Positions 11,628 through 52,069 of a stretch of DNA of 64,000 bases are shown piece by piece (position 1 is the stretch's first letter; every line of letters starts with the position of its first letter). Source of the DNA: Eledone cirrhosa (Eukaryota). Under the pieces are notes generated by a model. It worked only from the letters and a program-made list of their open reading frames with translations, was not told the DNA's origin and did not search any database. The translations under genes were made by a program, and so were the position numbers. The stretch spans positions 88,474,001-88,538,000 of the forward strand of contig OZ024743.1 of assembly GCA_964016885.1 (NCBI GenBank). The letters are read 5' to 3'.

Positions 11628-11663
11628 TCTTCTGATGAAGGTTTAGCATCCGAAACGTCAAGA
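11628..11663 (+). ncRNA. Minimal type I hammerhead ribozyme motif (Penelope-like)
   Basis: tctt-CTGATGA-a-gg(tttagcat)cc-GAAA-c-GTC-aaga: stem I tctt/aaga, short stem II, palindromic ACGT stem III, GUC cleavage triplet. Confidence 0.7.
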
Positions 11664-11744
11664 CCCTCTTCCTGCTATTTCAAGCATTAACCTAATATAT
11701 TCCTTCCATATACTGTACCGATTGTGTTGTTATTTACCTTTTAA

Positions 11745-11781
<37 letters not shown>

Positions 11782-11784
<3 letters not shown>

Positions 11785-13922
11785 CTGAAAGCAAACCTGC
11801 TGTTGGCGACAGACGAAGTCTGTGGCTGGAGCAGGCCTGTAGGCAGGAGGAGAGTAACATGGTGGTGGAACAGTAAGGTGGAGGGGTCAATTAAGGCCAA
11901 AAAGCAGGCTTGGAAAGTATGGCGGGATGGGGGAAGTAGAGAAGACTATCAAGTGGCCAGGAGGGAAGCTAGGAGACAAGTGTACTTAGCAAGAAGGGAA
12001 GCTGAGGAAAGAAAGTTCAAGCATGTTCTACAACGCGATGACCAAAAACGTGAGGTGTTCAGGATTGCTAGGCAATGCGTCAAGGAAAACCGTGATATTG
12101 TCGGGGAGAAGTGTGTACTAAACGACGATGGCACACTTGCCATCACCGACGCTGATAAGAAGGTAGCTTGGAAGTGTCACTATGAAAGGCTACTAAATGA
12201 GGAGAATAAATGGGAGAAAGACAGTCTCCCCCATATCGACCCAATAGAGGGACCAGCAGTGTTAGTCGAGGGGAGTATAATAAGTAAGGCAATCAAGGAT
12301 ATGAAGACGGGTAAGGCGGCTGGGCCTTCGGAAATAGTTGCTGAGATGCTGAAGGCATCTGGCACGGTGGGACACACCATGGTCACCCGCATAGTTAACC
12401 AAGTCGTACAGAATGGGGTTGTTCCGAAGGACTGGCATAGCAGCATCATCGTTAACTGTTATAAGGGTAAAGGAGACGCCCTAGATAGGAGTAACTATAG
12501 AGGCATTAAATTAATCGACCAGGTCATGAAGGTCACGGAAAAAGTAATAGCGCAACTAATCAGAGAGAGAATTGACCTAGATGAAATGCAGTTCGGGTTT
12601 GTGTCAGGCAAAAGTACCACAGACGCTCTTTTCATAGTACGACAACTACAGGAGAAGTACCTAGCTAAAGGTAAACCCCTCTACTTAGCTTTTGTCGACT
12701 TGGAGAAAGCCTTCGACAGAGTCCCCCGCTCCATTATCTGGTGGGCTCTTAGAAAACTAGGCATTGACGAATGGCTTGTGAGGGCTATACAAGCCATGTA
12801 TAAAGAAACAGTCAGCAAGGTTAGAATTAACAACGAATATAGTGAAGAGTTTAGCGTAAAAGTTGGCGTCCATCAGGGCTCTGTTCTCAGCCCACTACTA
12901 TTTATTATTGCCCTTCAGGCTATAACAGAGGAGTTCAAGACAGGCTGCCCATGGGAACTCCTATACGCAGACGACCTGACACTCATAGCGGAATCAATGG
13001 CCGAGCTAGAGAAGAAATTCCAAACATGGAAGCACGGCCTAGAGTCAAAAGGACTTAAAATTAACCTGGCTAAGACCAAAGTACTAGTTTGTAGGAAAGA
13101 AAACAAGGCGGCGGTCCCTTCTGGGAAATGGTCGTGCTCGGTGTGTAGGAAAGGCGTAGGTAGAAACTCCATTTTATGTCCTAAATGCAAAGTATGGGTG
13201 CATAAAAGATGTAGTGGGATCACAGGTAAGCTAACTAAGAACATAGATTTTACATGTGGCCGGTGCTCTGGTGCAATAAGTAGCAGCAAGTGCCCACAAA
13301 ATACTAGCTCTTTCAATTGCGCAGAGGGTTCTATAGAAATAGTGGACAGCTATTCCGTTACCTGGGCGATAAAATCAGCAGTGGGGGAGGGTGCTCTGAA
13401 AGTACTGTAGCTAGAGTCAGAACTGGTTGGAAAAAGTTCAGAGAGCTTATACCACTATTAGCTGCTAAAGGGTTCTCCCTAAAAATGAAAGGCAGGTTGT
13501 ACGATGCCTGCATACGAACAGCAATGCTGCATGGCAGTGAGACCTGGGCATTGTGTGCAGAGGATATACGCAGACTAGAGAGGAACGAAGCTTGCATGCT
13601 CCGCTGGATGTGTAACAGTAATATACGTGAACGGCAAAGCATAAACGAACTAAGGAAAAAATTAGAGATAAGAGGGATCAGATGTTGTTTACTCGAGAGA
13701 AGGCTACGTTGGTATGGACACGTGATGCGCATGAAAGTCGATAGCTGTATAACAAAGTGCAGGGCAATAAAGATAGACGGTAGTCACGGAATAGGCAGAC
13801 CTAGAAAAACCTGGGACGAGCTGATAAACTCCGACATCACACACTTACACCTCTCCAAGACAATGTCACTGGACCGAGACCTTTGGCGGTACTCAGTAAC
13901 AGAGAAGACCCGCCTTACCTAA
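11782..13922 (+). pseudogene. RTE ORF2 reverse transcriptase with inserted PHD-type finger, broken by a 2-bp insertion at 13351-13352
   Basis: ORFs 11722-13410 and 13317-13922 join if the extra 'ta' in gacagcTAttccgttac is removed; the copy at ~24690 reads gacagcttccgttac (DSFRYLG). Confidence 0.9.
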
Positions 13923-14085
13923 ATATATAGTAAAACCTACTCCAGCCAGTAGGCATCTCTAACAAAATACACCCCACCCCCAGGCTTTTCAGTTGTAACA
14001 ACTTCCCTGGTGTTGATGTCTCAAAAAGTGCACCCAGACGATATGCTAGCAGGAAAAATGGACATTAAACAATGATGATGATGAT
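11782..14085 (+). mobile_element. RTE-clade non-LTR retrotransposon, 5'-truncated (no endonuclease domain)
   Basis: RT motifs KAAGPS, YKGKGD..NYRGIKL, QFGF, AFVDLEKAFDRV, GVHQGSVLSP, YADD; C-terminal RLRWYGHVMR...GRPRKTW; 3' UTR ending in (ATG)n. Begins directly after a (TA)n run. Confidence 0.95.
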
Positions 14086-14526: not shown

Positions 14527-15123
14527 ATAACCAAATACAGAGATATATGTATATATAGAGAGAGAAAGAGCCATATATCGTAGAAGAAACACAGTATATT
14601 GGATATATACCAAATACATATTCTATAGAAGAATATGTACACAGTTGGAATCATAAAGGAAACCTTATAGCGCTATTTCATACCTGGAAAGTGTGGCTAA
14701 AAATCAATTTATGTAATCGATCATCGAGAAAAAAATCAATCAATATAATCGATCATCGAAGACAAACTATCGATTATGATTAAACCACATGAGACTCAGG
14801 TACTCATCAGAGGTTTAGTCTCACCATTCTAAGGGAAATATAGAACGAGTACCTGAGTCTCATGTGGTTTAATCATAATCGATAGTTTGTCTTCGATGAT
14901 CGATTATATTGATTGATTCTTTTCGATGATTGATTACATAAATCGATTTTTAGTCACACTTTCCAAGTATGAAATAGCGCTATAAGGTTTCCCTTACGAT
15001 TCCACCTTAATACATATTCTTCTATAGAATATGTATTTGGTATATATCCAATATACTGTGTTTCTTCTACGATATATGGCTCTTTCTCTCTATATATATA
15101 CATATATCTCTGTATTTGGTTAT
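14527..15123. mobile_element. Fold-back/MITE-like element with ~280-bp inverted arms and a 41-bp spacer
   Basis: 14527-14805 is the near-exact reverse complement of 14847-15123. Confidence 0.85.
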
Positions 15124-15224
15124 ATATAGTCTGCGGTGCCGGAACCGGGTAGGCCACAAATCATGGTAATACTCTAAACATGGAAAGAAAAAAGAGTCGG
15201 TACAGGAAGGTATAATCCCGACCT

Positions 15225-15238
15225 GCGACATCTAGTGG
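15225..15238 (-). promoter_or_regulatory. CTCF-like motif
   Basis: Minus strand CCACTAGATGTCGC, one mismatch from CCACTAGATGGCGC. Confidence 0.35.
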
Positions 15239-16196: not shown

Positions 16197-16245
<49 letters not shown>

Positions 16246-17721
16246 TACACAAAGTGTGTACGAAAGAGTAGGCATAACACTTAACAGAAATAGATGTGTG
16301 TGTATATACAGATAGAATTTGTGCATAGACATAATTATTATGTCCACCTGGGTGTATATTACATTGTTTACAAATAATAATACTCTTGAATTAAAATACT
16401 ATCGCCAGTATTTCAGAATTTAATTATTGGTCATGTCTTTTTCTAACATAATTACTCAAGTTTCTATTTCCGATCAATTGACCAGTTAAAGTTAAAACGT
16501 GTCAGCCATACAATTTTACAATTATACCATTCGGAAATCAAAACGTTTATTGAAAATATTTTGATGAAGATAGATCTATTTATAGACATCTCTTACAGAT
16601 ACGAACTTAAAGATAAATTGTGAAAGCACTTATATAAGATCGATGTATTTGTAAGGTTTGTTATAAAAGTGACACCAGTAGTAGCCATATTATTAATGAT
16701 TCAATTATCTTGTGTACATATTTTTTATTATTTTGCTACTGGCGAACTGTGGGTGACTTTTGTCAGTTTTATTATTGCATTGTTGTTTTGAGTTTCTTAG
16801 TTCTTGGTCGTCCCCTCTTCCACGGTGTATAGCAATTTAGGGTTGCTATTATTTATTGCTAAACTATGAAATTATAACATATCCTATAGCTGAATGCGGT
16901 TCTAATTGTTTTTCTGTCTGTAATTTCTTCATTCATCTTAGAATGGCGCAGAGTCTAGGCGTGTAAAACAAAATGTTTTGCAGTATTTTTTCTCGGTTCT
17001 GTGTTCCTAGTTGAAACCCTGTTGTGGCCTACATGGGTGGTAGACATAATCTGTCATCCGGTTTTAACATCATCCCTGTCACTTTCATATTTTAGGCGGA
17101 GCATTCTCTGTTGTAAGCATTCGAACAAGGTCCCTAGTTTGGAGATGCCTTCTTGCTCCTCATTAGTCTCGGAAACACAGAAAAGAGTCACGAGCACTTA
17201 TCCCACCTTCTACACAGTTAATAAACACATTTTTCTGTTTTGCCTTGTTTTCGTTCATTGTCTTGTCTTTTTATTAATTTCCCAAGTTTATTATTACTAA
17301 TCTGTGACATACATGTTTTCTCCCCCCCCCCCCATACTATCAATGATATATATATATATATATATATATGAGACGTATAGAGATTGTTTTAGCAAGAAGC
17401 TAACGGCATTCTATAACATATATGCGACTATAACGTCAAGATGGGAAAAGTAGTTAACGTAAGATTTAGGAAAAATAACTCAAACTCATCTCAAAAGAGA
17501 ATCAGGATACAAATTCATCCACAGAATTTAGTAAAATCCATGGAAAAATCTATAGACCTTTAACTCATGATAAAACAAAGTTTGAAACACTTATCCTTCA
17601 ATTTGGAATAACATCAAATGCTCTGTATAGTCTTAAAAGACTATTTCATGAAAACTTTCAGTGGAGATGGTCACGGTTGGAATATCATTCATCAGCAGAG
17701 CTCAACAGATATATATATATA

Positions 17722-18463
17722 CAGGGTGTCCAAAAAAATTTGACATCATTTCGCAGGCCAATAATTTTGGCAATTCTTGTTGAAATAACCTCAAATTTTC
17801 ACAGAATGTATAGAAACAGATCAAGATTTTATATTTAATGTTTTATATTTTTATATTTTCAGGTTGAGAAATGCCGTTCACTTCCAAAGCAAAGTCATTT
17901 TGCGTCTTGGAATATGCTCGAACACAGTCACCCAAGACTGTGTAGCGTGCTTTCAATGCAAAAGTTGGAAAAAGTTACCAACTGGCAAACAAATTTGGAC
18001 CTGATACCAAAAATTTAAAGAGGAAGGCTGCTTATGCAGGGCTAAAGGATCTGGAAGACCATCATCAACATCAGAAGAGAAGGTCGAGCAAGTTCGTGAA
18101 AAACTCTAGCGAAGCCTCAAGAAGTCCGCAAGGAGAACAAGTTTGGAAACCCAGATTCCTCGAATGACGGTTTGGCGTATCCTGAGGATACTGTTTGCCA
18201 GTTGGTGACTTTTTTTCCAAATTTTGCATTGAAGGCACGCTGCACAATCTTGGGTGACTGTGTTCGAGCATATTCCAAGACGCAAAATGACTTTTCTTTG
18301 GAAGTGAACCGTATTTCTCAATCTGAAAGTATAAAAATATAAAACATTAAATATAAAATCTTGATCTGTTTCTATACATTCTGTGAAAATTTGAGGTTAT
18401 TTCAACAAGAATTGCCCAAATTATTGGCCTGCGAAATTATGTCAAATTTTTTGGGACACCCTG
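17722..18463 (+). mobile_element. Tc1/mariner-derived non-autonomous element with ~270-bp inverted arms
   Basis: TA|CAGGGTGTCC ... GGACACCCTG|TA. Disrupted transposase N-terminus from 17871: MPFTSKAKSFCVLEYARTQSPKTV...KFKEEGCLCRAKGSGRP...SARRTSLETQIPRMTVWRILR, resembling DUF4817-type HTH transposase starts. Confidence 0.9.
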
Positions 18464-18666
18464 TATATTGTTATATTTGGGGAGGGTCATATTGGTATAT
18501 TGTTATAACATTGCCATAAATAATAATAAAACACACTCACTGTTTAGTTTGGTTTGGATTGGTTTTCGCTTCTGTATATTTTATATCCCTATAGTTAATT
18601 TAGCTGGCAATCAATATTTATCACTGACTGACCAACAGTTAACAAATATAGATATGAATATATATA

Positions 18667-18718
18667 TAGTCTATCAAAGTTCTTTCATCACACACCTGTG
18701 ACATCATCAGTGGTACTA
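18667..18718 (-). ncRNA. Degenerate type I hammerhead motif
   Basis: Minus strand tacca-CTGATGA-t-gtcaca(ggtg)tgtgat-GAAA-gaac-tt-tgata: good stem II, imperfect stems I and III. Confidence 0.5.
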
Positions 18719-19729
18719 TTATGTTTTCTCCCGTTATATTGTAATGTCTATTCTATTATACACGCACACACGCAGACAGACCTCTCAACTCCCTCCATCC
18801 GACAGGAAGATCGCCCGCCCATGTTGGGGTGGCTGAGAGATGTCTTCTTTTGTGAAAATATGTATAGCTTTCATTATGTAAAATCTCCCCATTTTGCCTC
18901 ATTTCTCCCCATCTTGGGACCCTTTTATTCATGGTACTCCTCGTTTGGGTTTTTAGAGGTTGCGGTCTGTAAATACTATGGTGACTTTTTCAGGTAAGAT
19001 CCCCACTTGTAGAATTAAAATCTGTATACAATATTGTTCAATAAATAGTAGGGCAAAGCTCTTAACAACAAAAGGTTGTTTACAAGATTTAGAAAGAATA
19101 ATAATTATCATCTGTGAAATATTAATTACGTCCAAGCTTTTCAAAAATTAACTGTTCATTGTTGTTAACGAAACGGTAGGCGACATCACTCAATCAAAAA
19201 AGTATTTATAATAATATAATATTTATAAAGTTTAGATTAAATTACATGTTTAACGATTAAATATGTCATTTTTCTCTTTCAATAACTGAATTACAAAATA
19301 AGACACGAATTGTTTAATGATACTGAAATTTGATAGAGAAAAGTTCTGCTCAATAAGTGTGAAGCAGCAATACCATTAACTATAATTATCGTAGAATAGG
19401 AATATTTTCACATGCCAACATCGATAAAACACTTTAAACCAATTTGCTAAAGGGAAATGTAACGTTTAATCTCACAGTTTTATAGGAGTTTTCATTGCAG
19501 TCAACTCATAACTATAATTTTAATTATTGGCAACGCTAAATAATTTTACATACATATATACACACGTACGCGCGCGACACAGGCACATGTAAACAACATT
19601 TGTTTTATGTTGGATGGTTTGACTAATAGGTAGATCTAGTCATTCCGATTAGCAGATTGTGATGTAATTAGCATAAGCACTCGACGTATGCGTATCATCC
19701 ATCTGGTTGCTGCAGGAACGGAATTAAAT

Positions 19730-21851: not shown

Positions 21852-22190
21852 GGAGGCACATGGTTTAGTGGTTAGAGCATTGGCCTTGCAATCGAAAGGT
21901 TGTGAGTTCAATTCTCAGACCGGGTGATGTGTTGTTTCCTTGAGCAAGACACTTTATTTCACATCGCTCCAGTTTACTCAGCTGTAGAAATGAGATGATA
22001 GGGACTGGGGTCCCTATCATTCCACTGCAAAGTGGTCGTGGAGGTGCCACGGCAAAAAAGCACCCAGCACTCACTGTAAATGAGGTTGGTGTTAGGAAGG
22101 GCATCCAGCTGTAGAAATCAAGCCAGAATCAGTTCCCGTCCCACCCTTGCAAGCAGGGAAAAGGGACGTAAAATGAAATGATGCTGATGA
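21852..22190 (+). mobile_element. Full-length CORE-type SINE with RTE-derived 3' tail
   Basis: tRNA head (tggtttagtggttag, gagttcaattc), CORE-like ccttgagcaagacactt...cagtttactcagctgtagaaatg, tail identical to part of the RTE 3' UTR. Confidence 0.88.
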
Positions 22191-23214: not shown

Positions 23215-23656
23215 GTATATGTACATACATATATGTATACAGACGTACAGTAGTATGTATATATATACATACATTTATCGTTTTCGGTGCACCCGGTCGA
23301 CTAAACTCACTCAATATGCAAATTAGGATGCTCAGCCGTTAATATGCATAAGGAAAGTATATACTTTCAGACGTTCATCCATCTGGCAGGAAGGTATACG
23401 ATGCTGACGATAGCTAATAAGCTTGAAACTAGTACATCGTTCCTGTGTCAGTGTTGAACAAAAAGGTGACGTGGTTGCCTAAATACTGTACGGCGTAATT
23501 CGGGCTGTTTGTTTACAAACAGACAAACCGAGCATTATAATAAATGTTCGGTAAACCGATTCGTGCATATATATATGTGTGCATGTATGTATATATATAC
23601 ATACTACTGTACGTCTGTATACATATATGTATGTACGTATACATACATACTTACAT
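23201..23656 (+). mobile_element. ~455-bp element bounded by 74-bp inverted repeats and carrying a hammerhead motif
   Basis: 23201-23274 and 23583-23656 are reverse complements (2 mismatches) and include the non-microsatellite core tacagacgtacagtagta. Confidence 0.75.
23387..23445 (+). ncRNA. Type I hammerhead ribozyme motif with extended stem I
   Basis: cagga-aggtat-acgatg-CTGACGA-t-agc(taataa)gct-t-GAAA-ctag-TA-catcgt-tcctg: 6-bp stem I plus a 5-bp extension beyond a bulge, palindromic ACTAGT stem III, GUA triplet. Confidence 0.75.
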
Positions 23657-23707
23657 TTAAGTAAGTGCCGTACTAAGAGTGAGAAATGAAATTTCGTTTC
23701 ATTCTAT

Positions 23708-23737
<30 letters not shown>

Positions 23738-23738
<1 letters not shown>

Positions 23739-24909
23739 CATCATCATCATTATCATCATCATCATCATCATTTAACGTCCATGTTCCACGCTTGCATGGG
23801 TTTGGACGAGAGTTTTCCCACTTGAGGCAAGAGTGGTTGTCTTGCTCGCCTAGGACTGTCTGGCGGGTTTTCTACAGCTGGATGCCCTTCCTAACACCAA
23901 CCACATTTACAGTGTGGAACTGGGAGGTTTTTACCGTGTTACCTACACGGCCACATTACAGCGTGGACTGTGTGTTTTTTTTGTCGTGACACCTACACGA
24001 CCTCATTTGTTTCGGGCTGGATGTTGTGACACCAACATAACTTTACATTGAAAGGGGTGGTGTGGATGGGATGGGGGTAGTGGGACGGGGGTGTATTTTG
24101 TTAGAGGTGCCTACTGACTGTAGTAGGTTTCACTTTGTACTTAGGTAAGGCGGGTCTTCTCTATTACTGTGTAGCGCCAAAGCTCTCAGTCCAGTGACAT
24201 TGTCTTGGAGAGGTGTAAGTGTGTGAGGTCGGAATTTATCAAGTCGTCCCAGGTTTTTCTGGCTCTGCCTACTCTATTTTTATTGCCCTGCACTTTTTTA
24301 TACAGCTGTCGTCTTTCATGCGCATCACGTGACCATACCAACGTAGTCTTCTCTCAAGTAAACAACATCTGATCCCTCTTATTCCTAATTTCTCCCTTAG
24401 TACGTTTATGCTTTGCCGTTCACGTATATTACTATTACACATCCAGCGGAGCATGCAAACTTCGTTTCTCTCCAGTCTGCACATATCCTCTGCGCACAAT
24501 GCCCAGGTCTCACTGCCATGTAACATTGCTGTTCGTATGCAGGCATCATACAGCCTGCCTTTCATTTTTAGAGGGAACCCTTTAGCGGCCAATAATGGTA
24601 TAAGCTCTCTGAACTTTTCCCATCCCGTTCTGACTCTAGCTACTGTACTTTCAGAGCACCCTCCCCCACTGCTGATTTTATCACCCAGGTAACGGAAGCT
24701 GTCCACTATTTCTATAGAACCATCTGTGCAATGGAATGAGTTAGTATTCTGTGGGCACTTGCTGCTACTTATTGCACCAGAGCACCGGTCACATATAAAA
24801 TCTATATTCTTAGATAGTTTACCTGTGATCCCACTACATCTTTTATGTACCCATACTTTGCATTTGGGACATAAAATGGAGTTTCTACCTACTCCTTTCC
24901 TACACACTG
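23738..24909 (-). mobile_element. 5'-truncated RTE LINE beginning at the PHD finger
   Basis: ORF 24269-24937 matches 13138-13775; (TCA)n tail at 23738-23770. Confidence 0.93.
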
Positions 24910-24940
<31 letters not shown>

Positions 24941-25534: not shown

Positions 25535-25539
<5 letters not shown>

Positions 25540-25680
25540 AGTTTATGTTGGTTGTATACCAACACCTCAGTTTGCAGGCTGGAGCACTCGACGAAGTGCG
25601 CAGGTTGGTTTGGTTACTCCGGAGTAGTGTAAAATAAAGTTAAATAAAAGTCAAATGATTAAAATTTAGCTTCGTTTATT

Positions 25681-25735
25681 ACTGCTATATATATTTCAGT
25701 GACAGCCATCTTTGGCTGTGACCTCTTCAGGCAGT
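25681..25735 (-). ncRNA. Type I hammerhead ribozyme motif, intact core
   Basis: Minus strand actgc-CTGAAGA-ggtcacagcca(aaga)tggctgtcact-GAAA-tatat-ATA-gcagt-AATAAA: perfect 5-bp stem I, ~10-bp stem II, palindromic stem III, AUA triplet, then a poly(A) signal. Confidence 0.82.
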
Positions 25736-25819
25736 TTGAGTTAGTATGGTATAGACAAGTACATATGTTGTTTAGGTGTATAATATTGCCTGATAAACCT
25801 CAGAACCGACTTCTTCGGG

Positions 25820-26030: not shown

Positions 26031-26977
26031 CATGATAGCCTAGAGATAGAATCGGACACAGCCATTATAATTTGGCCAACATCTATATAACACAAACACT
26101 TTTTAATTTACTAGATTTCTGATTTTCAAGTTCCAATCTTAAATCTTGATTTCTCTTTATTATGGGTTTAGATGGGTTGTGACATACTGTGGCTGGACAG
26201 GTCTGGTGATTGTGCCTTACTCATACACACCACTTTTGGCTTGGTTTTTAGGGCTGGATGCCTTTTCTAATGCCAACCATTTTATAGTGTGTATTTGGAG
26301 CATTTTATCATGATTTTGGCACTACCACTTTACAGGGTGAACTAAGTGTTTTTTGTCATGATACCAGCACCACCAACTTAGAAGGTAGACTGCGAGCTTT
26401 TTATCATGGCAACTACACTACCACTTTACAGTGCAGACTCAGTACTTTACATCTCGACCCCTGTAAGGATGAAAGGCAAAGCTAACCTTGGCAAGATTTG
26501 TAACTATATCTCGCTTCTGATGAGCATATCAGGCAAAAGACCAAATATTTCTGAAGTACTGAGAAAGAAAAAGAACACTTTCAGATATGTATAGATCAAA
26601 ATAATTTATAAAAATCAACAGATATAATGTATTGTAATTTTTTTTTTACTTTTGTTATTTGATTATTAAAATATCTGTAAATATGAGGCATATTTTTTAA
26701 AGATAATAAATTAAAGCAATGGGAATAATATTTTGTCTGGATATTGCTTTGAGTTCTTCCAATTAAGAAGAGTAAAATACAATTTATTAAAATCTTAGTG
26801 TGATAGACGAAATGTTTGATTAGAAATACATTAGGCAACAATGTATTTCATTTATCTACATATTATTTGAACTCTTGTATTTCGATCTAATAATTATGCA
26901 CTTGAGATAAATTAAGTTTGCTTTTAAATAACATATGGTGCAGATGTCAACACTTTAGTATAATTCTATTCACATTG

Positions 26978-27845
26978 GACCGAATTAGCAGCGGAGGTGG
27001 GTGTTCAGAAAGTATAATAACTAGGGTAAGAACGGGATGGAAGAAGTTCAGGGAACTACTGCCACTGCTAGCTGCAAAAGGCTTCTCTCTCAAAATGAAA
27101 GGCAGACTGTATGATGTGTGTATACGAACAGCAATGTTACATGGTAGTGAGACCTGGGCGCTGGAGGTGGAAGACTTACGTAGATTAGAAAGAAACGAAG
27201 CCTGCATGCTCCGATGGATGTGTAATAGTAATATACGAGAACGGCAAAACATAAATGAATTGAGAGAGAGACTGAGCATAAGAGGAATCAAATGCTCTGT
27301 GCAGGAGAGGCGGTTGCGTTGGTATGGACATGTGATGCGTATGAAGGATGACAGCTGCATAAAAAGGTGCAGAGCACTAGAAGTCAATGGAAACCGTGGA
27401 GTGGGGAGACCCAAGAAGACCTGGGATGAGGTGATAAAAGCCGACCTTACCCAATTACACCTCTCAAAGGCGATGACACACAACCGTGACCTCTGGCGTC
27501 ACGCAGTAATATAGAGTACCCGACCTCCCATGGGTACAAGCTGAAGCATATAGACAATATGCCCCCACACCCTCCCACTGCAAAGTGGTCGTGGAGGTGC
27601 ACGGCAAAAATAGCACCCAGCCCACACTGTAGAGTGGACGTGTAGGCGCCACGGAAAAAAGCACCCAGCACTCACTGTAAATGAGGTTGGTGTTAGGAAG
27701 GGCATCCAGCTGTAGAAATCAAGCCAAAATCAGTTCCTGTATGAGCAAGGCATGGTCAGACACTGACCACAACAGGACAACCCGTCTAACCGATGCTAGC
27801 ATGGAAGAACGGACGTAAAACGGTGATGATGATGATGATGATGAT
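26978..27845 (+). mobile_element. 5'-truncated RTE LINE, subfamily 2, open frame to the stop
   Basis: ORF 26918-27514 from DRISSGGG onward; full 3' UTR and (ATG)n tail. Confidence 0.93.
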
Positions 27846-32918: not shown

Positions 32919-33520
32919 GGAAACCGAAGCCTCTATGCGGTCATTGTACCTGTTAGAAACTGCCGATGATTAATTCTTTCGACTTTATCGTCTTTAAATG
33001 GTCGAATATACTAGATAACACAGTTCTGGATGAAATATGTCCTTATGTAAGCCACCCGTCTCTCGATAAAAAATAGACAGAACGGGGGGCATTTTTGCAA
33101 ATAAATATCGTCTGGTTGCAACAGATATGACAAAATTCAATGAAAAAACAAAACAAAAACAAGATTCAATCTTGTTTGCTGTTTACAGTCTATATCTTTT
33201 TGTGTAAGTTTAATCAATAGGCGTTTTTGAGGACTCGGCCCCGACGATCCAAACAGGAGTAAGGTGGGCAAAGAAGTTTAATCAATAGAATGCATCTTTT
33301 AATATCAAGATAAACTAATCGAAAAATATCTAATGTAAAGAAACTTTTCTCTAAATATTATATATTATCCAAGTGCACGATGAATAGATCACAAATTCGA
33401 TCGCTCTTCCACTCTGCTCCGCCGTGCACAATCTGGAGAGATGGTCATAATTAGACCTTGAAAACTTAGGTAGCGCTTTTTGTTCCTTGTGTGAAGATAA
33501 ATAAATAGTGGTAAGAAACT

Positions 33521-33745
33521 CCCAGGAGAGCTGGATAGCAGGTCTTCAGAGAAGACCCTCACTTCCCAAGCGAGTGTTTCGGCCCTTAACTTCTTACACC
33601 GGGCCGCATCAGGTCATGACTCCTGGGTGCCCTTCTGCTGACATTTAGCCATTTGGATATGGGAGACTTGCTGTGTATTTAAACTGTATGGAGATTTAGT
33701 TGAAAGTGTCTTCAAACTGGAACTCCTCTCCGTTTCCTCTGCTTT
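33521..33745 (-). mobile_element. Penelope-like element 3' remnant: GIY-YIG-like C-terminus followed by a hammerhead-like structure
   Basis: With one frameshift the minus strand reads about QRKRRE.F..KTLSTKSPYSLN, resembling the R..RE.FWI..L.T..P.GLN end of PLE endonucleases. It is followed by CTGATGC-ggccc...gggcc-GAAA-cact...agtg. Confidence 0.6.
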
Positions 33746-34549
33746 CAAATATATATTATATAGATATAGAAGCGTCGCTTCTATTTCTATTTCAATTCTA
33801 AAAAATTTCGCTCGCCGCGTTCCAAACTTATTCCCTTTGTTGATATAATATTAGAATAATTTTAACATGTCATAAAGATGATTATAAAAGTATGTGATGT
33901 TTTATTTGTTTACACAGAAATACGAATAGACTGAGAGTTAACGTGTTTGGAATAGGAAATTAGTTGATTTATGCTGAGAACCGCGCGCTTTTTTTTTCAT
34001 AATGAAAAGGCTACAGCCGTTGAAGACAGCTCATATTTCACTCACAAGTTGGTGTTATCAGAAATTTTGACATAAATTGAAAACATGCCTCATTGGACAA
34101 ACAATAACTAACTATATCATATACACCTAAATACATATATCAGTGTACGCATTTTAGTGTATGTACATGAATATGCAGTATATATTATAAGCGAATTAAC
34201 TTCAGTGAAAAAGTTAAGGAAAGAACTTGAGTGAAAGCAGAAACGCGGGAACTCTTGACTTGTGTTGTTTAACCTTTTGTAAGTGTCGTAACTTTGTTAA
34301 AACTTCACAAAGAGGGTGAACTGAAGCTAAAGAAATCTTTATTAGCTTTATAATTAATTTTAAAAGTATTTTCTTTGAATGAATGGGGAAGGAAAAGTTA
34401 ATGAAACTCATTAGAAGCGCTCTGAATGCTCGACACGGTGTATGGGGCAACACAAGTTCCCACTAACTTTTTGTAACTCGGTATAACGAAGGGGGTACAT
34501 ATATGTGATACCTACAAAATAGGATAATTTAATTTTTTTATGGGGCTAA

Positions 34550-35314: not shown

Positions 35315-35965
35315 TGTATACACACATTCTACACAATGCAAATTGACTGGAACGAATAAAAACAAGAGTTGATTCCTGCCGAGTCATCTTCACCACCTTC
35401 ACACACTGAAACAAACAAACACACACACAGTGGTAATCATGTTTGTATGTATGTTCTCCATGCCATATAATAACTACTACCTCTGCATGTAGCATTCATT
35501 CATTTCAATAGTCGGCTTCGGCTTTTCCCTGCTATATGCCATCCATTTATTCAGGCTATCTACTTGTACACACTTAAATCCTACCATACCTTCCTCCACA
35601 CACTGGCTTATGAATGAATATGCTGCCTTCGCTCTAATTTAACGTGTTGTAGAAGTAGAGGCGGGCAAGCTGTTCCACATTTGGCAGCAGTGATGGTGAT
35701 GATGGTGTGTATATATAGATATATTATTTATATAATGAGAGGGAAGTAATTTGATTGAAGTGGAATATTGAGAAAAGTTTTCAATTGATATTCTCGGGTA
35801 TGTTGAGAGTTGATCTACTGAACACGTTGTCTCTCTGATCATATATATATATATATAAGTATTAAGTTGTTAAACAATATTCGATGATTATGTCAAAGAA
35901 TGAGTTTTACAGTAGATTGGAAGCACTCAACGGGAAATCATTTTCAGGAGTATGTCATGTATCAT

Positions 35966-36018
35966 ATTTTGTCTAATGAGGACGTACTGTTGTACATCCG
36001 AAATATGAATAATAAAAT
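35966..36018 (+). ncRNA. Degenerate type I hammerhead motif
   Basis: attttgt-CTAATGA-ggacgtac(tgtt)gtacatcc-GAAA-tatgaata-ataaaat: stems I and II present; G5 is mutated to A. Confidence 0.55.
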
Positions 36019-36049
36019 GTAATTGATCATAAGAACATCTATTTTATTA

Positions 36050-36052
36050 ATA

Positions 36053-36098
<46 letters not shown>

Positions 36099-40387: not shown

Positions 40388-40975
40388 CAGTGTTATTGTC
40401 CAGGTACCTCTATAACAGTACTGTGGTAGGCAGTGTTTTATTGTCCAGATACCTCTATAACTGTACTGTGGTAGGCAGTGTTATTGTCCAGATACCTCTA
40501 TAACTGTACTGTGGTAGGCAGTGTTATTGTCCAGATACCTCTATAACTGTACTGTGGTAGGCAGTGTTTTATTGTCCAGATACCTCTATAACTGTACTGT
40601 GGTAGGCAGTGTTATTGTCCAGATACCTCTATAACTGTACTGTGGTAGGCAGTGTTATTGTCCAGATACCTCTATAACTGTACTGTGGTAGGCAGTGTTA
40701 TTGTCCAGATACCTCTATAACTGTACTGTGGTAGGCAGTGTTATTGTCCAGATACCTCTATAACTCTACTGTGGTAGGCAGTGTTATTGTCCAGATACCT
40801 CTATAACTGTACTGTGGTAGGCAGTGTTTTATTGTCCAGATACCTCTATAACAGTACTGTGGTAGGCAGTGTTTTATTGTCCAGATACCTCTATAACTGT
40901 ACTGTGGTAGGCAGTGTTATTGTCCAGGTACCTCTATAACTGTACTGTGGTAGGCAGTGTTATTGTCCAGGTACC
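40388..40975. repeat. 43/45-bp minisatellite, ~13.5 units
   Basis: cagtgtt(tt)attgtccagatacctctataactgtactgtggtagg in near-perfect tandem. Confidence 0.97.
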
Positions 40976-40989
40976 CCGAGTACCTTACC

Positions 40990-41690
40990 ACAGCCATGTA
41001 GCTACATGACTGTTTTGTTGTAACCACATGTCTGATTCTGTTCTGTTGTAACCACATGTCTGATTCTGTTCTGTTGTAACCACGTTTGTGTGTCTGTTCT
41101 GTTGTAGCTATGTGTTTGTGTATGTTATGCTATAGCCACATGTTTGTGTGTTCTGCTATAACCACATATTTGTGTGTTCTGCTATAACCACATATTTGTG
41201 TGTTCTGCTATAACCACATATTTGTGTGTTCTGCTATAACCACATATTTGTGTGTTCTGCTATAACCACATATTTGTGTGTTCTGCTATAACCACATATT
41301 TGTGTTTTGTTGTAACCACATTTGTGTATCTGTTCAGTTAAGAGCACGTTTTGTGTATGTTCTGTTGTAGCCGCAAGTTTGTGTTTTGTAACCACGGTGT
41401 CTGTTTTGTTATAGCCACATGTGTGTGTGTGTCTGTTTGTGTTTGTAGTAGCCACATGCCTCTCTTCTGTTGTAACCACGTTTGTGTATCTGTTTTACCA
41501 TGGCCACTTTTTTATGTCTGTTTTACCATGGCCACTTTTTTATGTCTGTTCTATTATTGCCACGTTTGTGTTCTGCTGTTGCCATATGTCTATCTGTTTC
41601 GATGTAGCCACATGTTTATGTCTCTTCTGTTGTAAGTGTATCTGTTATGCTATAACCACATGTTTACATGCGCGTTCAGCTACAACTGTG
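40990..41690. repeat. 26-bp minisatellite with a homogeneous core (~41150-41305) and degenerate flanks
   Basis: ctgctataaccacatatttgtgtgtt units. Confidence 0.9.
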
Positions 41691-44595: not shown

Positions 44596-44924
44596 TCATC
44601 ATCATCATCATAGTCTGCTTTTCCCTGCTTGCAAGGGTGGGACGGGAACTGATTCTGGCTTGATTTCTACAGCTGGATGCCCTTAACACCAACCTCATTT
44701 ACAGTGAGTGCTGGGTGTTTTTTTGGCGTGGCACCTCCACGACCACTTTACAGTGGAATGATATGGACCTCAGTGCCTATCATCTCATTTCTACAGCTGA
44801 GTAAACTGGAGCAATGTGAAATAAAGTGTCTTGCTCAAGGAAACAACACATCACCCGGGCTGAGAATTGAACTCACAATCTTTCGTTTGCAAGGCCAATG
44901 CTCTAACCACTAAGCCATATGCCT
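44596..44924 (-). mobile_element. Full-length CORE-type SINE with RTE tail
   Basis: Reverse complement of 21852-22190. Confidence 0.88.
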
Positions 44925-44951
44925 ATATATATATATATATATATATATATT

Positions 44952-46012
44952 CGTTTAACGTCCATTTTCCACGCTAGCATGGGTTAGACCATGTCTTGCT
45001 CATACAGGACTATCTGGCAGGTTTTTTACGGCTGGATGCCCTTCCTAACACCAACCACATTTACAGTGTGGAACTGGGAACTTTTTACTGTGTTACCTAC
45101 ACGGCCACATTACAGCGTGGACTGTGTGTTTTTTGTCGTGACACACCTATACGAGCTCGATCTCATTTTCTCGTGCTGTTGGTGGGAGTGGGAGGATAGG
45201 GTAGGGGTAGTGGATTGGGGTGTATATTTGGTTAAGAGGTGCCTACTGACTGTAGGTTTCACTTTGTACATAAGCAAGGCAGCTCTTATGTATTACTGCG
45301 TAGCGCCAAAGATCTCGGTCCAGAGACATTGTCTTAGAGAGATGTAAGTGTGTGAGGTCGGAATTTATCAGATCATCCCAGGTTTTTCTGGGTCTACCTA
45401 CTCCGTAACTACCATCAATTTTGATCGCCCTGCATTTTTTTATGCAGCTGTCTTTCATGCGCATCACGTGACCATACCAATGTAGTCTTCTCTTAAGTAA
45501 ACAGCATCTGATCCCTCTTATTCCTAATTTCACACTTAGTTCATTTATACATGCATGCTTCGTTCTTTTCCAGTCTGCGCAGGTCCTCTGCACGCAATGC
45601 CCATGTCGCACTGCCATGTAGCAGTGCTGTTCGTATACAGGCATCATACAATCTGCCTTTCACTGTTAGAGAGAAACCTTTTGTGGCCAACAGCGGTATA
45701 AGCTCTCTGAACTTTTTCCATCCCGTTCTGACTCTGGCTACTGTACTTTCAGAACACCACCACTGCTGATTTCGTCACCCAGGTAACGGAAAGTGTCTAC
45801 TATTTCTATAGAACCATCTGGGCAATAGAAGGAGCTAGTATCCTTTGGACACTTGCTACTTATTGCACCTGAGAATTGGCCACATATAAAGTCTACGTTC
45901 TTAGATAGTTGACTCGTGATCCCACTATATCTTTTATGTACCCATACTTTGCATTTGGGACATAAAATGGAATTTCTGCCTACTCCTTTCCTACACACTG
46001 AGCATGGCCATT
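44952..46012 (-). mobile_element. 5'-truncated RTE LINE beginning at the PHD finger
   Basis: KWPCSVCRKGVGRNSILCPKCKVWVHKR...; frameshifted; 3' UTR present. Confidence 0.92.
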
Positions 46013-46379
46013 TATATATATATAAAATCATTTAGCATCTGCAAGAACTATTTGTAAAAATTTTGCTATAGTGCTCAAATGAGTTAAGCATCAGCTGAAC
46101 ATATATTTGGTGTAAGTTCTAAGCAGTTTGGCTATATTATCACGTACAATTATTATTATTATGTGATTAATGGGTATAATTAAATTCCATGTTCTGCTCA
46201 TTAAATATATTTACTAATAAAGAAACTCTTATACAATATTTGGAAGAATATGTTTACAGCCATGAAAACTGTACCAAGAAGATTTGTTGGAATTTGTCCA
46301 GGTTGCTTTTTATCTAAACAGAATACACACATTCACTCACAGTGGATGTTTATAATTATAGCGTCTCTTAAAACAACTC

Positions 46380-46661: not shown

Positions 46662-48370
46662 TTCAGGTGTGGCTATGATTTAGCATAGTTCAGGTGTGGC
46701 TGTAATTTATCGTAGTTCAGGTGTGACTGTAATTTAACATAATTAAGGTGTGGCTATGATTTAGCATAGTTTAGGTGTGGCTATGATTTAGTATAGTTCA
46801 GGTGTGGCTGAAATTTAGCATAGTTCAGGTGTGGCTGTAATTTAACATAATTAAGGTGTGGCTATGATTTAGCATAGTTCAGGTATGGCTATATGATTTA
46901 GCATAGTTCAGGTGTGGCTGTAATTTAACATAATTAAGGTGTGGCTATGATTTAGTATAGTTCAGGTGTGGCTGTAATTTAACCTAGTTCAGGTGTGGCT
47001 GTAATTTAACCTAGTTCAGGTGTGGCTGTAATTTAACCTAGTTCAGGTGTGGCTATGATTTAGCATAGTTCAGGTGTGGCTGTAATTTAACCTAGTTCAG
47101 GTGTGGCTGTAATTTAACCTAGTTCAGGTGTGGCTATGATTTAGCATAGTTCAGGTGTGGCTGTAATTTAACCTAGTTCAGGTGTGGCTATGATTTAGCA
47201 TAGTTCAGGTGTGGCTATGATTTAGCATAGTTCAGGTGTGGCTGTAATTTAACATAGTTCAGGTGTGGCTGTAATTTAGCATAGTTTAGGTGTGGCTGTA
47301 ATTTAACCTAGTTCAGGTGTGGCTATGATTTAGCATAGTTCAGGTGTGGCTGTAATTTAACCTAGTTCAGGTGTGGCTATGATTTAGCATAGTTCAGGTG
47401 TGGCTGTAATTTAACCTAGTTCAGGTGTGGCTATGATTTAGCATAGTTCAGGTGTGGCTGTAATTTAACATAATTCAGGTGTGGCTATGATTTAGCATAG
47501 TTTAGGTGTGGCTGTAATTTAACCTAGTTCAGGTGGCTATGATTTAGCATAGTTCAGGTGTGGCTGTAATTTAACATAATTCAGGTGTGGCTGTAATTTA
47601 ACATAATTCAGGTGTGGCTGTAATTTAACAATTAAGGTGTGGCTATGATTTAGCATAGTTCAGGTGTGGCTGTAATTTAACATAATTAAGGTGTGGCTAT
47701 GATTTAGCATAGTTCAGGTGTGGCTGTAATTTAGCATAGTTCAGGTATGGCTATGATTTAGCATAGTTCAGGTATGGCTATGATTTAGCATAGTTCAGGT
47801 GTGGCTGTAATTTAGCATAGTTCAGGTGTGGCTGTAATTTAGCATAGTTCAGGTGTGGCTGTAATTTAGCATAGTTCAGGTATGGCTATGATTTAGCATA
47901 GTTCAGGTGTGGCTGTAATTTAACATAATTAAGGTGTGGCTATGATTTAGCATAGTTCAGGTATGGCTGTAATTTAACCTAGTTCAGGTATGGCTGTAAT
48001 TTAACCTAGTTCAGGTGTGGCTGTAATTTAATCTAGTTCAGGTGTGGCTATAATTTAACATAGTTCGGGTGTACTGTAATTTAGCGTAGTTCTGGTGTGA
48101 CAGATATAATAGTTCAGATGTGACTGTCATGAAACATACTTCATGAGTGGCTGTGATGTGACATAGTTCAAGTGTGGCTGATGTAACATAGTTTAGGTGT
48201 GTCTGTGATGTAATACAATTCAGGTGTAACACAATTGAGATGTCTGTGATATAACATATCAGTTGTGACCGATGTAACATAGTTCAAGTGTGACTGATGT
48301 AACATAGTTCAAGTGTGACTGATGTAACACAGTTCAACTGTGACTGTGATGTAACAGTTCAGGTGTGACT
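46662..48370. repeat. 27-bp minisatellite, ~50 conserved units decaying toward 48370
   Basis: ttcaggtgtggct followed by atgatttagcatag or gtaatttaac(c/a)ta(g/a). Confidence 0.97.
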
Positions 48371-49287
48371 ATTGCAACAATCTAGACAGCCTCATATTGA
48401 AATACTTATGTTCCATAATATAGTGGGATTAAGGTAAATTATTGAATGTTTAAGCGATAGTCGTTGATGAACAGATGGTATGTTCTGTAAAGTGGTTGTT
48501 ATTAGGATGGACATCCAGTTGTAGAAATCATGCCCAACATGGAAGATATAAGCAAGACATGGTTTCTTCAACCTGCCTGTCTAGTACCATTTCAATTCCT
48601 GCCATCATGGAAATTGAAAGTAAAATGATGTTAATGGTTTTTAATTATATCAATACTATTGCATCATAACATGTTATGTATATGTCTGCAATAGAGAACA
48701 ACCATTGCATATTGTATATACTCATTTATAAATAAGTTGCATGTTTTTCCCTTGAAAGTATGAAAAACCAGCATGCTACTTACCTACTGGACTTAGTCTT
48801 TACAAATGATATGGTAGAAAATTGAGGTGACTGACCTACTGGACTTTAAAAGTCTGAATATAGATTATATGGACATTGCATAATAAATGTTGTATATAAA
48901 ATTGAGGTATGACTTAGTATACATTGTAAAAGTTGTTTGGAAAATAGAAGTGTGACATGTCAATAGAACAACAAATGTTGCTGTCATAGAGGCCCACATG
49001 GTATTGACAATCCCAGCTGCAGCAACTGCATGTAATGGCATTATCTACCAGTGTGATCAGTGTCCTTTTCACAAAGAATTTGCTTTACTTCAGCAGCTAA
49101 CATCAGCTTCCCCTCTCATCTTTCTTTAGTTTTAGCCTCCATTCCTTTCTATATCAGTATATCTTACTCATCTAACAAGGCCAATCCATGTTATTTGCTA
49201 ATCTTTGCTAAAACAATAATTGATGATAGTGTCTAGCCCTCATATTTCAGTTATCTGTATACAGGAGTCCCAATGGACAACCGGTTT

Positions 49288-49835
49288 TAACTCTTTCGTT
49301 ACCGTATTTCTCAGGAAAGACATTGCTTATAATTTTCAAATCCTTTTGGAGTTAATAGAGAATTTTGAGCGATTTAGTAATATATAACTTTTTCTTTTAT
49401 TAAGCTGGTGTTTGAAATATAACTTAAAGGTTCTGACATAGAATTATGATGGAATTTTTTTTTTTTTAGATAAATATAAATACTTTTAAAACATACATGT
49501 ATGTAAAGTTTGTATATTGAATATAATACAATGTTTACTAATAAACATTTGAAAGCCTTTAGCTATGAATTTTAAAGATGGTGACTGGCGTCACCTACTG
49601 TGTTCCAGTAGATGCATGGAAGGTAGGTGATGCTAGCCACCACCTTTAAAATTCATAGCTAAAGGCTTTCAAATATTTATTTGTAAACATATATATTATT
49701 CAATATACAAGCTTTACATACATGTATGTATACAGCTATATTGGAGAGAACACCTCAATTCTACTTTTAAAACAATTTTGTAACATAGATAGAACCAGGG
49801 GTGGTTCTTTTTTTTTTGGTATCAAAAGTGCTACA
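49288..49835 (+). mobile_element. TTAA-type MITE family B, interrupted by a fold-back insert
   Basis: ttaactctttcgttaccgtatttct ... ggtatcaaaagtg. The same family occurs at ~65-290, 29073, 29950-30600, 31600-31830, 50490-50716, 57510-58140, 59175-60076, 60335-60555 and 62050-62205. Confidence 0.65.
49491..49729. repeat. Fold-back hairpin with ~108-bp arms
   Basis: 49491-49598 is the reverse complement of 49623-49729 with few mismatches. Confidence 0.88.
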
Positions 49836-52069
49836 CTTCTTATTGCCTGGAAAATATGAGATGAAGAACTGAGCCTCAGATAGTCCGCTACCAGCATATT
49901 AAATTCATAACTGAACTCACCTTGTTGACTGCTGGCTAAACTTGAAACATCTCAAATGCAGCAGATTATGATGATTCGTGTATGCCACATCCCCATTTTC
50001 CATACCATATATTTTGAATTGGGGTTTGTAGGTCCAGTAGTTAAGTTACATGGTGGTTTTTCACATATTTTTGTGGATGAAAGTGTGACATATATATATA
50101 TGGTAATTAGTGTTTCCTTTAAATGTGAGAGGAAAAAATGAAATAAAATGTACAGCTTGCATCTATGCAGGTTTAGCTGGTCTCCTACAAGGTTATATCC
50201 CAGAGGAGGTTTCTTGAGTGTTTTAATGATAACGGTTCTAGTTCTATCTTGAAAAATAACATGAAATGAAGTGTCTTGCACATGAACACAACATGCTGTT
50301 CAATCCAAGAATTGAACCCATGGCCTTATGATTGTGAGTCTAACACCCTAACCACTATGCTACCTGCTTTCACTCTTTTAGAATTTGCAACCTTATCTTT
50401 ACGTAAGATATTATTTTCAAATATCCTTTTTTTTTTATTTTAGATCAGTTTTGTTTGTTCTTTCTTATACCATAAATAATCTATCCTCATTAATCCTTTC
50501 CTAATTGTATTTGGAATGAAAGACACTGCTGGTTTTTAAATAATCTTGAAAAATAATGAAGAATTTAGAGGGATTTAAGTAATATAGCTTTCTCGTTATC
50601 AAGCTGGTGTTTGGAACATAAAAATCTGATAGGTTTAATTATCAATACTTTAAAACAACAGCTCAGTATCATAGAACCAGGGGTGGTTTCAGGTGTTTTG
50701 GAATTAAAATAGTTAATATGCTTTAAAGGATTTTGTCTAAATTCTTGAGATGAGGTATTATCATTATTATAAATTGATTTAGTCAGATTAGTGTCCTTGC
50801 TTTGTTTCCAACTTTCTTCAGATCCCTGTTGTCTTTGATGGGGGTTCTTGGCATTTTAAACCTGAAGATGGTCAGAATGTATAATGGTTGAAACTAGACT
50901 AGAACAATATTAGTCCAAATGAATCATCATCACCGTTTTATGTCCACTTTTCCATGCTTGCATGGTTTGGACATGTCTTTTCCAGCTTGTTATCCTTCCA
51001 CTCGTTGCAGTTCTTTGTCATTATTTCTATGAGCTTCATCGATTTGGGATTGATTCTCACCATCTATGCTTAGGTCTTCTGCTGCAGTTTCGTTCCATTG
51101 ACATTTTCTGGCACTTTTTACCTAATGCACATTAACATTGCACATCCATCAGAGCATAAATCTATAATAATGCATTGAAGGTGTTTGCAATTTGCTATTT
51201 TATCTGCATCTTCAGCTTGTTTATTTACTTGTCTAAGACTCAACATTCTTCGTCATATCACAAAAAATATCAATTCCTATTGTAATATGTTAAAATTTCA
51301 ACTCTTAATGTCCTGTACCACATGAAACGACATAGGCAAGATATTTAAAAAAAATACAAAACAACACTATGACCGCATCACATGAAATATTGAAGTCTAA
51401 TACATCAAATTTTCACACTCTGTTTACTAGTAAACATACTATAAACATTTGAATTAAGAAACCCATTTTTAGATATTTTCTGCTAAATCATTAGAGGTTG
51501 TTAAGAGTTATTTATTCATTATACTAACCCAACAAAATGAATGTCTGTTACAAATCAGTTCATTGTTCCAGATATACCATCCTTCTGATTTTCAGAGGAG
51601 GCAATGTGGTAATCTGAGCAGAGTGTAGTGGATCCATTTTATTGTGGTACCATTTTTGTCTTGCTCACTGCAAGTCCAAAGAGTCCTCTCTACTTTGCAT
51701 TGACTGCATTCTTTCAAAGTAAATGACTCAAAGTGTAGACAGAATGGAATAATAGCTAGGAGGTATCAAAAGCTGTCAACTATTTCTAGTTAGTTCTATG
51801 AGTGTTTGCAGTTTATTTTGCATGTAACCTTGCTGTGAACCACTTCTGAGCATGTATCACAAAGTGTACTGTTTTTATCAGACTACTTGTAAATACCCTT
51901 ATATTATGTAGGTCCATGTACACTGGGTACATCTTGTGAAATTTCCCTGATGGGTCCCATCTTCCTCAATTTGTAAAGATTTAATTTTTTTTACTAGTTT
52001 GCTTTGAGTCTTTTCAATTTCAGGTTTTGCTTTCATGTCTGAAATTTCTTTTGCGATTTCATTGTTAGA

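Follow-up and report, generated by a model that had tools for sequence, protein, structure and literature searches.

We analysed a stretch of 64,000 nucleotides of the Eledone cirrhosa genome (G000:C4:88474001-88538000, hereafter the window, from a genome of 3.0 Gb in 1796 contigs) and found on its minus strand, around position 33553, the tail of a long interspersed nuclear element (LINE). Relatives of this element share a conserved hammerhead motif of rearranged order that, judged from sequence comparison, probably cuts the element RNA some 90 nt upstream of the 3' end. With the same good measure of confidence we read the window as a whole as five to six ordinary type I hammerhead repeats of the Penelope or retrozyme kind plus one broken R2-group LINE tail. 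Most of what the original prediction had reported here is known biology, and its item at 33553(-), taken there for a type I core variant, leads to a new hammerhead variant in an unexpected host.

The LINE that carries the motif

By homology the element around 33553(-) is the tail of a non-LTR (non-long terminal repeat) retrotransposon of the R2 group, HERO-like and with a restriction-like endonuclease (REL). Its features in the window are:

33497..33757, minus strand: 5'-truncated LINE 3' end assigned to a family termed family A, identity with other copies about 80%
33533..33639, minus strand: non-circularly permuted hammerhead motif, from the family alignment and covariance model R1 (35.5 bits, E 3e-7, this same copy being part of the R1 training set)

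Longer family-A copies (L063 and L089) continue into sequence coding for zf-RVT and REL domains, which resembles P0059, a reverse transcriptase (RT) polyprotein whose zinc knuckle and C-terminal domain are matched with E values of 7e-21 and 6e-12. As in the R2 group, one open reading frame (ORF) leads from the RT via a zinc knuckle to the restriction-like endonuclease, the PD..ELTVPWE..K stretch being what we take to be the REL. The REL fragment of a younger family, family B (L406:619-1140(-)), has 272 homologs, the best of which are fish proteins with 75-79% identity, followed lower down by lancelet proteins; this identity is high for a distant non-fish host. In having one ORF that comprises RT, zf-RVT and a PD-D..K-type domain at the C-terminus, and in its fish and lancelet homologs, dispersed insertion and partial tandems, the element resembles HERO and Zebulon of the R2 group, Zebulon reportedly forming partial tandems as well. 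BAC82598 and BAC82599 are presumably HERO-Fr and HERO-Tn, and AAN12398 presumably Zebulon; the clade name is taken from these accessions and from published definitions, not from a tree.

HERO elements have been defined as REL-bearing, non-site-specific elements of fish, lancelet and sea urchin (PMC3636483, PMC9004415).

Architecture and conservation of the motif

Comparison of the copies gave the order P4a-P5-II-IIIb-III-H17-I-linker-II'-GAA-III'-IIIb'-I'-CUGAnGA-P4b. In the window copy the parts lie on the minus strand as follows:

33638-33631: P4a
33630-33606: P5 hairpin
33605-33601: 5' strand of stem II
33600-33596: stem III
33595: H17, an A, with the predicted cut at 33595/33594
33594-33590: stem I
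33585-33581: II'
33580-33578: GAA
33577-33573: III'
33554-33550: I'
33549-33543: CUGAAGA, 3' of GAAAC
33542 onwards: P4b

All hammerhead core bases are kept in the LINE-tail relatives, in a non-circular order. Family A reads GAGUGU-A-AGAAG, a linker, GGGCC-GAA-ACACUC and, further downstream, CUUCU-CUGAAGA, the cut site being followed by GAAA and this by CUGAnGA. The partner of stem II lies upstream, A9 runs on into P4, and P4, P5 and II abut without a spacer, while a GA/GA motif with a 3-nt bulge between III and IIIb follows the kink-turn (K-turn) consensus. Missing from the window copy are 12 nt comprising the 5' strand of IIIb and one K-turn side, a single G of P5 and 3 nt of P4b; this copy is therefore likely dead.

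A pattern of the permuted order, which made no pairing demand, matched the genome exactly 113 times, compared with 2 matches for the reversed control. The matches span several families, whose stems I and II differ in sequence yet pair, and at least five are preceded by coding fragments of RT or REL type. All copy numbers given here are counts of candidates or of exact pattern matches (113, 238 and 23). In viral contigs the pattern gave 104 chance-like stretches, three of them with 4 stem I pairs and none with more, and no protein relatives were found in these contigs.

The motif was also sought in metagenome contigs, at the best 80 of 203 loci, chosen solely by REL-domain protein homology. A simple structure descriptor found it in sense downstream of the ORF at 42 loci, in antisense at none and in 0 of 800 shuffles, and the full descriptor yielded 49 loci in sense and 0 in antisense. 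R1, built from 40 sequences, matched 68 of the 80 loci, all in sense (33 outside and 35 inside the training set), which does not amount to 68 species because many of the contigs share an assembly prefix; six of its 12 misses had less than 50 nt 3' of the protein match, and four (L498, L515, L517 and L518) had at least 300 nt. In the 40-row alignment two-sided changes occur in 34 of 39 pairs, every helix covaries and 90.5% of the cells are paired, with 96% for stem I, 95% for II and 94% for III, each with two-sided changes, percentages that are inflated because the descriptor demanded 4 of 5 pairs in I, II, III and P5. The covariation score of 0.681 compares with 0.203 for shuffled and at most 0.148 for slid versions of these 40 sequences, and since descriptor picking and relatedness inflate such shuffle tests, the variety of pair types found within single columns carries more weight.

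The full descriptor allowed one core mismatch, and removal of two mis-parsed and two duplicate motifs from the 49 left 45 unique ones. CUGAnGA is intact in all 45 and GAAAC in 43, H17 is C in 22, U in 16, A in 6 and G in 1, and the core-adjacent pair of stem II is G-C in 38 and G-U in 5. The core bases are those of a hammerhead, and stems I-III abut the core and covary. GA/GA with the 3-nt bulge has the K-turn letters in 40 of the 45, and the P5 loop contains a palindromic hexamer in 34 (7.2 expected), six different palindromes being used. Two other pairings were rejected, namely a canonical stem II downstream of CUGAnGA, by the descriptor and by the motif pairing counts, and a pairing of the CCUU after A9 with AAGG as a general feature, which fits family A only.

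At 45 of the 49 metagenome loci a stop codon lies upstream of the predicted cut, and at L485 the stop codon begins immediately after it. A C-terminal peptide resembling the translated 5' half of the L485 motif is present in 16 of 136 stored proteins, those with species names being from fish, and the DNA of these 16 would be expected to contain the LINE-tail motif. Head-to-tail junctions, in which a 3' end is followed directly by the next 5' end, were seen in L524 (a 610-bp piece and a 3.6-kb unit), in L525 and at 10 of the 49 metagenome loci.

Several further forms of the motif were observed. L396 (G000:C3:104554053) and L403 (G000:C4:346005793) have permuted motifs with unusual stems (a 9-bp stem II and an 8-bp IIIb); the 5 kb upstream of them show no REL ORF, and they are possibly non-autonomous relatives; at L409 (G000:C9:34894471) the permuted motif is apparently tandem-duplicated at a spacing of about 100 nt. 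A 42-nt piece of the family-A tail (I'-CUGAAGA-P4b) recurs in satellite arrays (G000:C1:15896511-15915309, L574-L603, and G000:C2:2.83-3.09 Mb), a satellite 32-mer from this tail having 2957 exact matches in the genome, and short duplications of the same piece, apparently via shared GUUUCUU microhomology, occur in 6 of 40 dispersed family-A copies.

5' ends of genomic copies

Cleavage of the RNA after H17 would predict that copies derived from the 3' piece start at this point. A search with the 3' piece only gave 11 of 30 family-A copies starting at -2..+2 relative to the predicted cut, two of them representing one locus. A pattern beginning at +5 had 238 matches, and among the first 100 of them 48 lacked the upstream 40 nt; 45 of these short copies start at -4..+5, three at -8..-10 and none further upstream to -40.

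For a control set the anchor was moved to about +36, and 67 rows remained of the first 100 of 301 after 33 satellite rows had been dropped, ten of the copies overlapping the earlier sets. Ends per nt amounted to 0.9 at +17..+27, 1.6-1.7 at +3..+16, 2.8 at -2..+2, 0.5 at -10..-3 and 0.05 at -30..-11, with 13 of the 67 copies extending past -30, and the 10 nt on either side of the cut held 24 versus 4 ends (p=1.8e-4). Position 0 is also the junction of two fold-back inversions (L623, L642) and of jumps into more upstream parts of the element (L608, L621, L633, L651).

Proposed mechanism and alternative explanations

In the mechanism that we propose, the GA/GA motif would act as a kink-turn and fold stem III back, bringing the distal ends of I, II and IIIb together, and P4 and P5 would close the open side of the core. 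The core would cleave 3' of GUH, and the 3' piece would stay bound via stems I, II, III and P4; because these retain it, the element RT could still prime on the tail. An RT primed there would run off at the nick, giving short copies that start at the cut, and uncut or religated RNA would give long copies and partial tandems. Where copies are arranged in tandem, cleavage would release RNA of unit length from transcripts that read through, much as the 5' hepatitis delta virus (HDV) ribozyme does for R2, although we give the formation of unit-length or circular RNA from tandem read-through not quite an even chance. The palindromic P5 loop may let two RNAs kiss, dimerisation being a prediction.

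Besides the inflated pairing percentages and the shared assembly prefixes, a number of points weigh against cleavage by this motif. Known hammerheads have no insertion of more than 1-2 nt between A9 and 10.1 according to PMC10085705, and the junction described here could be non-catalytic for this reason: A9 and 10.1 are joined neither directly nor by 1-2 nt, as P4 and P5 intervene. Pairing of the post-A9 bases with 11.1 is limited to 4 of the 45 motifs, placing the stem II partner 5' of the cut block and leaving P4/P5 as the sole way from A9 to G10.1. The hammerhead of a Penelope-like element (PLE), studied in vitro, was not required for insertion and itself depended on protein (PMC11167929). 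Truncations at +3..+27 are common in the control set (33 of 67), and the 5'-end signal is hence a peak with a cliff, not a lone spike. Family B gives little of this signal: by eye, short copies make up about 2-4 of 23 matches, and the partial tandems begin elsewhere than at 0 (at -25, -32 and about -520). Target-site duplications around short copies are not clearly enriched, those of at least 7 nt numbering 3 of 31 versus 2.3 and those of at least 9 nt 2 versus 0.3.

The LINE tail might instead be a non-catalytic, hammerhead-like recognition fold for the RT/REL protein, short copies being made by RT stalling or by a host nuclease, an explanation that we consider unlikely. It would accommodate the entry of A9 into P4, not stem II, the family-B copies that mostly span the site and the retention of the 3' end past the site in the inserted copies examined. 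Yet stem II does exist, with its upstream partner, and the G10.1-C11.1 pair is G-C or G-U in 43 of 45 motifs; N7 and H17 vary just as catalysis permits, H17 avoiding G, and the cliff of 5' ends coincides with the predicted bond. Stalling is further disfavoured because the partner strands would already have been copied at that point, with no helix left to block the RT. It is more improbable still that the short copies derive from a separate master transcript starting here, similar to a short interspersed nuclear element (SINE), and that the motif cleaves rarely or never in vivo. Although the restriction of the strong step to family A, where 48 of 100 copies are short, would suit such a transcript, upstream flanks vary between copies, starts scatter over -4..+5 with a downstream tail, as for run-off from one RNA end, and inversions and upstream-element jumps join at 0.

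That all motifs of the window, including 33553(-), are type I hammerheads of the Penelope type is hardly credible. This description holds for 11632, 17695, 23404, 25730 and the family of 35973, but is refuted at 33553(-), where no stem I exists in the type I frame and the element is a REL-type LINE. The CUGAUGC at 33612(-), which had been taken for a variant core, is the 3' strand of a hairpin with a one-base deletion, the 30 aligned family copies reading CCUGGAUGC there.

Type I hammerheads in the window

The type I part of the window is of a kind already published for animal genomes. Our strict descriptor comprised the core, a stem II of at least 2 bp, a palindromic or hairpin stem III and a stem I of at least 4 bp, and found four matches in the window versus a mean of 0.15 and a maximum of 1 in 40 local dinucleotide shuffles of 1-kb blocks, the cores being located at 11632+, 23404+, 25730- and 17695-. 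With one core mismatch allowed, 5 matches compared with 1.0 in 15 shuffles. Bare CUGAnGA..GAAA cores are weak evidence, since the window has 13 versus 6.5 expected and a maximum of 14 in 100 shuffles. An Rfam search of the window at E<=5 returned no hammerhead, and no repeat family covers the motif of a candidate at 26517+.

The repeats and unsupported motifs are listed below, core counts referring to up to 30 fetched copies per family and copy numbers being first-look candidate counts:

11503..11745, plus strand: short repeat with a minimal type I hammerhead; 3341 candidates, 88-95% identity; core in 28 of 30 copies
17346..17709, minus strand: 5'-truncated copy of a 629-bp tandem retrozyme; 1916 candidates, 99-100% identity; core in 30 of 30 copies
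17722..18463, no strand: element resembling a miniature inverted-repeat transposable element (MITE), with terminal inverted repeats of about 270 bp, at TA between two hammerhead-bearing repeats
18464..18757, minus strand: 3' repeat of a probable Penelope-like element; core at 18710-18704; 4709 candidates
23272..23738, plus strand: non-autonomous repeat with a 438-bp unit; 1325 candidates, 95-97% identity; core in 24 of 30 copies
25535..25790, minus strand: short (TA)n-tailed repeat with partial copies in inverted orientation; 966 candidates; core in 26 of 30 copies
35841..36055, plus strand: repeat of about 220 bp, then (TA)n; 1640 candidates; core in 26 of 30 copies
17131..17170, minus strand: unsupported as a hammerhead; CUAAUGA without GAAA, related copies without the core
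50862..50900, plus strand: unsupported as a hammerhead; core letters with broken stems, motif without a second copy

The original prediction of six to eight type I motifs fared unevenly. The strict cores at 11632, 23404 and 25730 correspond to its entries at 11628, 23387 and 25681, and 17695-, which it lacked, was contributed by the descriptor. The motif expected at 35966(+) belongs to a real family, and 26 of 30 copies having an intact core identify the window copy as a G5A relic, likely inactive, its own core at 35973+ reading CUAAUGA instead of CUGAnGA. For 18667(-) the core, at 18710-, and stem II are present, but stems I and III are weak, also in the majority of the family. Neither of the two weaker relics could be upheld: at 17131-17170(-) the CUAAUGA at 17166- is not accompanied by GAAA and the core is found in 0 of 4 related copies (0 of 5 rows with the window's own), and at 50862-50900(+) the core letters are present in broken stems and the motif has no homolog elsewhere. 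Several of the more general expectations were borne out. The strict motif exceeds its dinucleotide-shuffled controls, the genome-wide flank search placed each strict motif in a multi-copy repeat with about 1000-3300 candidates, and the flanks belong to distinct repeat families, in agreement with the predicted origin of the stems from different families. The proposed layer of ribozyme-bearing Penelope-like repeats is likewise supported, as several unrelated, high-copy, short families each carry a type I hammerhead.

The hammerhead at 11628-11663 has stem I UCUU/AAGA, the core at 11632-11638, a bulged A and a palindromic ACGU; stem II is weakened in the window copy, and the repeat is followed by (TA)n at 11745-11782. 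In the 17695 family, which is very young, the hammerhead spans 17702-17620 with the core at 17695-17689, the longest ATG-initiated ORF of the 629-bp unit has 45 aa, and a monomeric fold is predicted for the 7-bp stem III. The 23404 hammerhead (23398-23440) has its core at 23404-23410 and a palindromic ACUAGU, and its family shows partial tandems and inverted 5' pieces. At 25735-25681 the core occupies 25730-25724 and the palindrome is AUAUAUAU, and the hammerhead of the 35973 family spans 35965-36019.

The full arrangement CUGAnGA-II-GAAA-III-UH, with stem I closing it, occurs in a multi-copy setting in the 11632, 17695, 23404, 25730 and 35973 families. These repeats are 220-630 bp long, non-coding where tested and mostly end in (TA)n, and most have a palindromic stem III. 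The 17695 and 23404 families form non-coding tandem units (629 and 438 bp, respectively), and the 11632, 25730 and 35973 families partial tandems or inversions only. By their partial tandems, inverted 5' pieces and (TA)n ends the type I families are elements of the Penelope or retrozyme type. Longer copies of the 18710 family have RT-like and GIY-YIG-like coding sequence upstream, the motifs being recognised by eye in L202 and L206 (Atlas 0.96, with GIY-YIG assigned to 15% of one cluster); neither Pfam nor a homolog search returned anything for this sequence. PLE-like ORFs near type I copies (L012, L027, L113, L117, L124) were rejected as parts of the repeats, being neighbours, not continuous with them, and without a Pfam match. 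These fragments (L012:2358-3263, L027:2663-3259, L113:2558-3076, L117:1713-3068, L124:2-625), with motifs that we take to be RWK, GIY-YIG-like and LYGLPKIHK, are candidate autonomous partners.

At 17346-18757 two hammerhead repeats and the MITE-like element adjoin at TA sites, suggesting that microsatellite targeting may produce local clusters of hammerhead repeats; an insertion bias of this kind has been reported for PLE clades (PMC8557442).

Other repeats in the window

The GC content is 35-40% across the window and (TA)n is abundant. The long ORFs are LINE fragments, none being evident as a long host ORF. Several fragments belong to one LINE family in which a PHD-like finger accompanies the RT (Pfam RVT_1, E 1.5e-32; PHD, E 1.6e-6), and a second MITE-like element, at 14527-15123, has terminal inverted repeats in the same range as that at 17722-18463 (200-270 bp). 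The three-copy repeat listed last is probably a tRNA-derived SINE.

11647-13922, plus strand: RT/PHD LINE fragment (Pfam)
24269-24910, minus strand: RT/PHD LINE fragment (Pfam)
26906-27514, plus strand: RT/PHD LINE fragment (Pfam)
45243-46013, minus strand: RT/PHD LINE fragment (Pfam)
52198-52998: RT/PHD LINE fragment (Pfam)
46662-48227: minisatellite array, 27 bp
40388-40975: minisatellite array, 43 bp
41010-41339: minisatellite array, 26 bp
55961-56336: minisatellite array, 48 bp
21852-22151, plus strand; 44684-44945, minus strand; 58298-58597, plus strand: 92-98% identical repeat in three copies, weak tRNA match

Relation to known systems and implications

Six block orders have been described for hammerheads, block C being assumed to be uninterruptible (Eckert et al. 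2023, PMC10085705). The LINE tail has the same cyclic order S, G, C as the type-SGC non-circularly permuted hammerheads (HRIMA-1 and variants), and shares with them the short linker from stem I to stem II, the pseudoknotted core and all core bases. Unlike type SGC, with its three intact blocks in order, it has a split block C, CUGAnGA and its stem II strand lying at opposite ends of the motif and being connected via P4/P5, as well as a K-turn-like motif in stem III, a palindromic P5 loop and an animal LINE as host. In the text and supplement of PMC10085705 'HERO' does not occur and 'retrotranspos' is found solely in a reference title, and the available part of PMC3088659 describes core insertions of 1-2 nt only. 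Rfam detected no hammerhead at gathering score in 8 loci of the same genome and none at E<=1 in 8 metagenome loci. Judged by titles and the beginnings of abstracts, the accessible literature on hammerheads in connection with HERO, REL, kink-turns, Zebulon, NeSL and Utopia elements or non-circular permutation has no paper on the motif, and none reporting a ribozyme in HERO or Zebulon elements came up; subscription papers, Repbase/Dfam notes and bioRxiv supplements may mention it.

Animal genomes contain thousands of type I motifs, with many unrelated families per genome, low activity and action as dimers (PMC4209133, PMC7229834). The five window families resemble the type I hammerheads of PLEs and non-LTR retrozymes (PMC4209133, PMC7229834, bioRxiv 10.64898/2026.07.22.740005) in their palindromic stem III, the sometimes bulged base after A9, tandem or inverted arrangements and thousands of copies. 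The 17695 family differs from retrozymes of about 220-390 bp by its 629-bp unit and stable 7-bp stem III, and the LINE-tail motif differs from all PLE and retrozyme hammerheads in not being type I. HDV-like ribozymes, known from the 5' ends of R2 and of RTE elements (PMC3636483, PMC7650587), are, as proposed for the LINE tail, self-cleaving RNAs that would free a LINE RNA from a read-through transcript. They belong to a different ribozyme class, and the LINE-tail motif, being located at the 3' end, could affect the following copy only where copies stand in tandem.

For a wider reading we see somewhat better than even prospects. HERO-type LINEs across animals would carry an active, seventh hammerhead topology with a split core block, a five-helix junction, a built-in kink-turn and a kissing-loop dimer site, which would control which RNA is copied and make unit-length or circular templates, and in many fish the 3' tail would be cut exactly between the last codon and the stop. 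If true, this would add a hammerhead topology outside the six thought possible, place a non-circularly permuted ribozyme in animal genomes and provide, within the literature covered above, the first 3'-end hammerhead found for a LINE of the apurinic/apyrimidinic endonuclease (APE) or REL type. As the cut would be recorded in genomic copies, the in-vivo role of retroelement hammerheads would become testable from sequence, and since R2-group elements are under development for gene insertion, the origin of their RNA ends matters.

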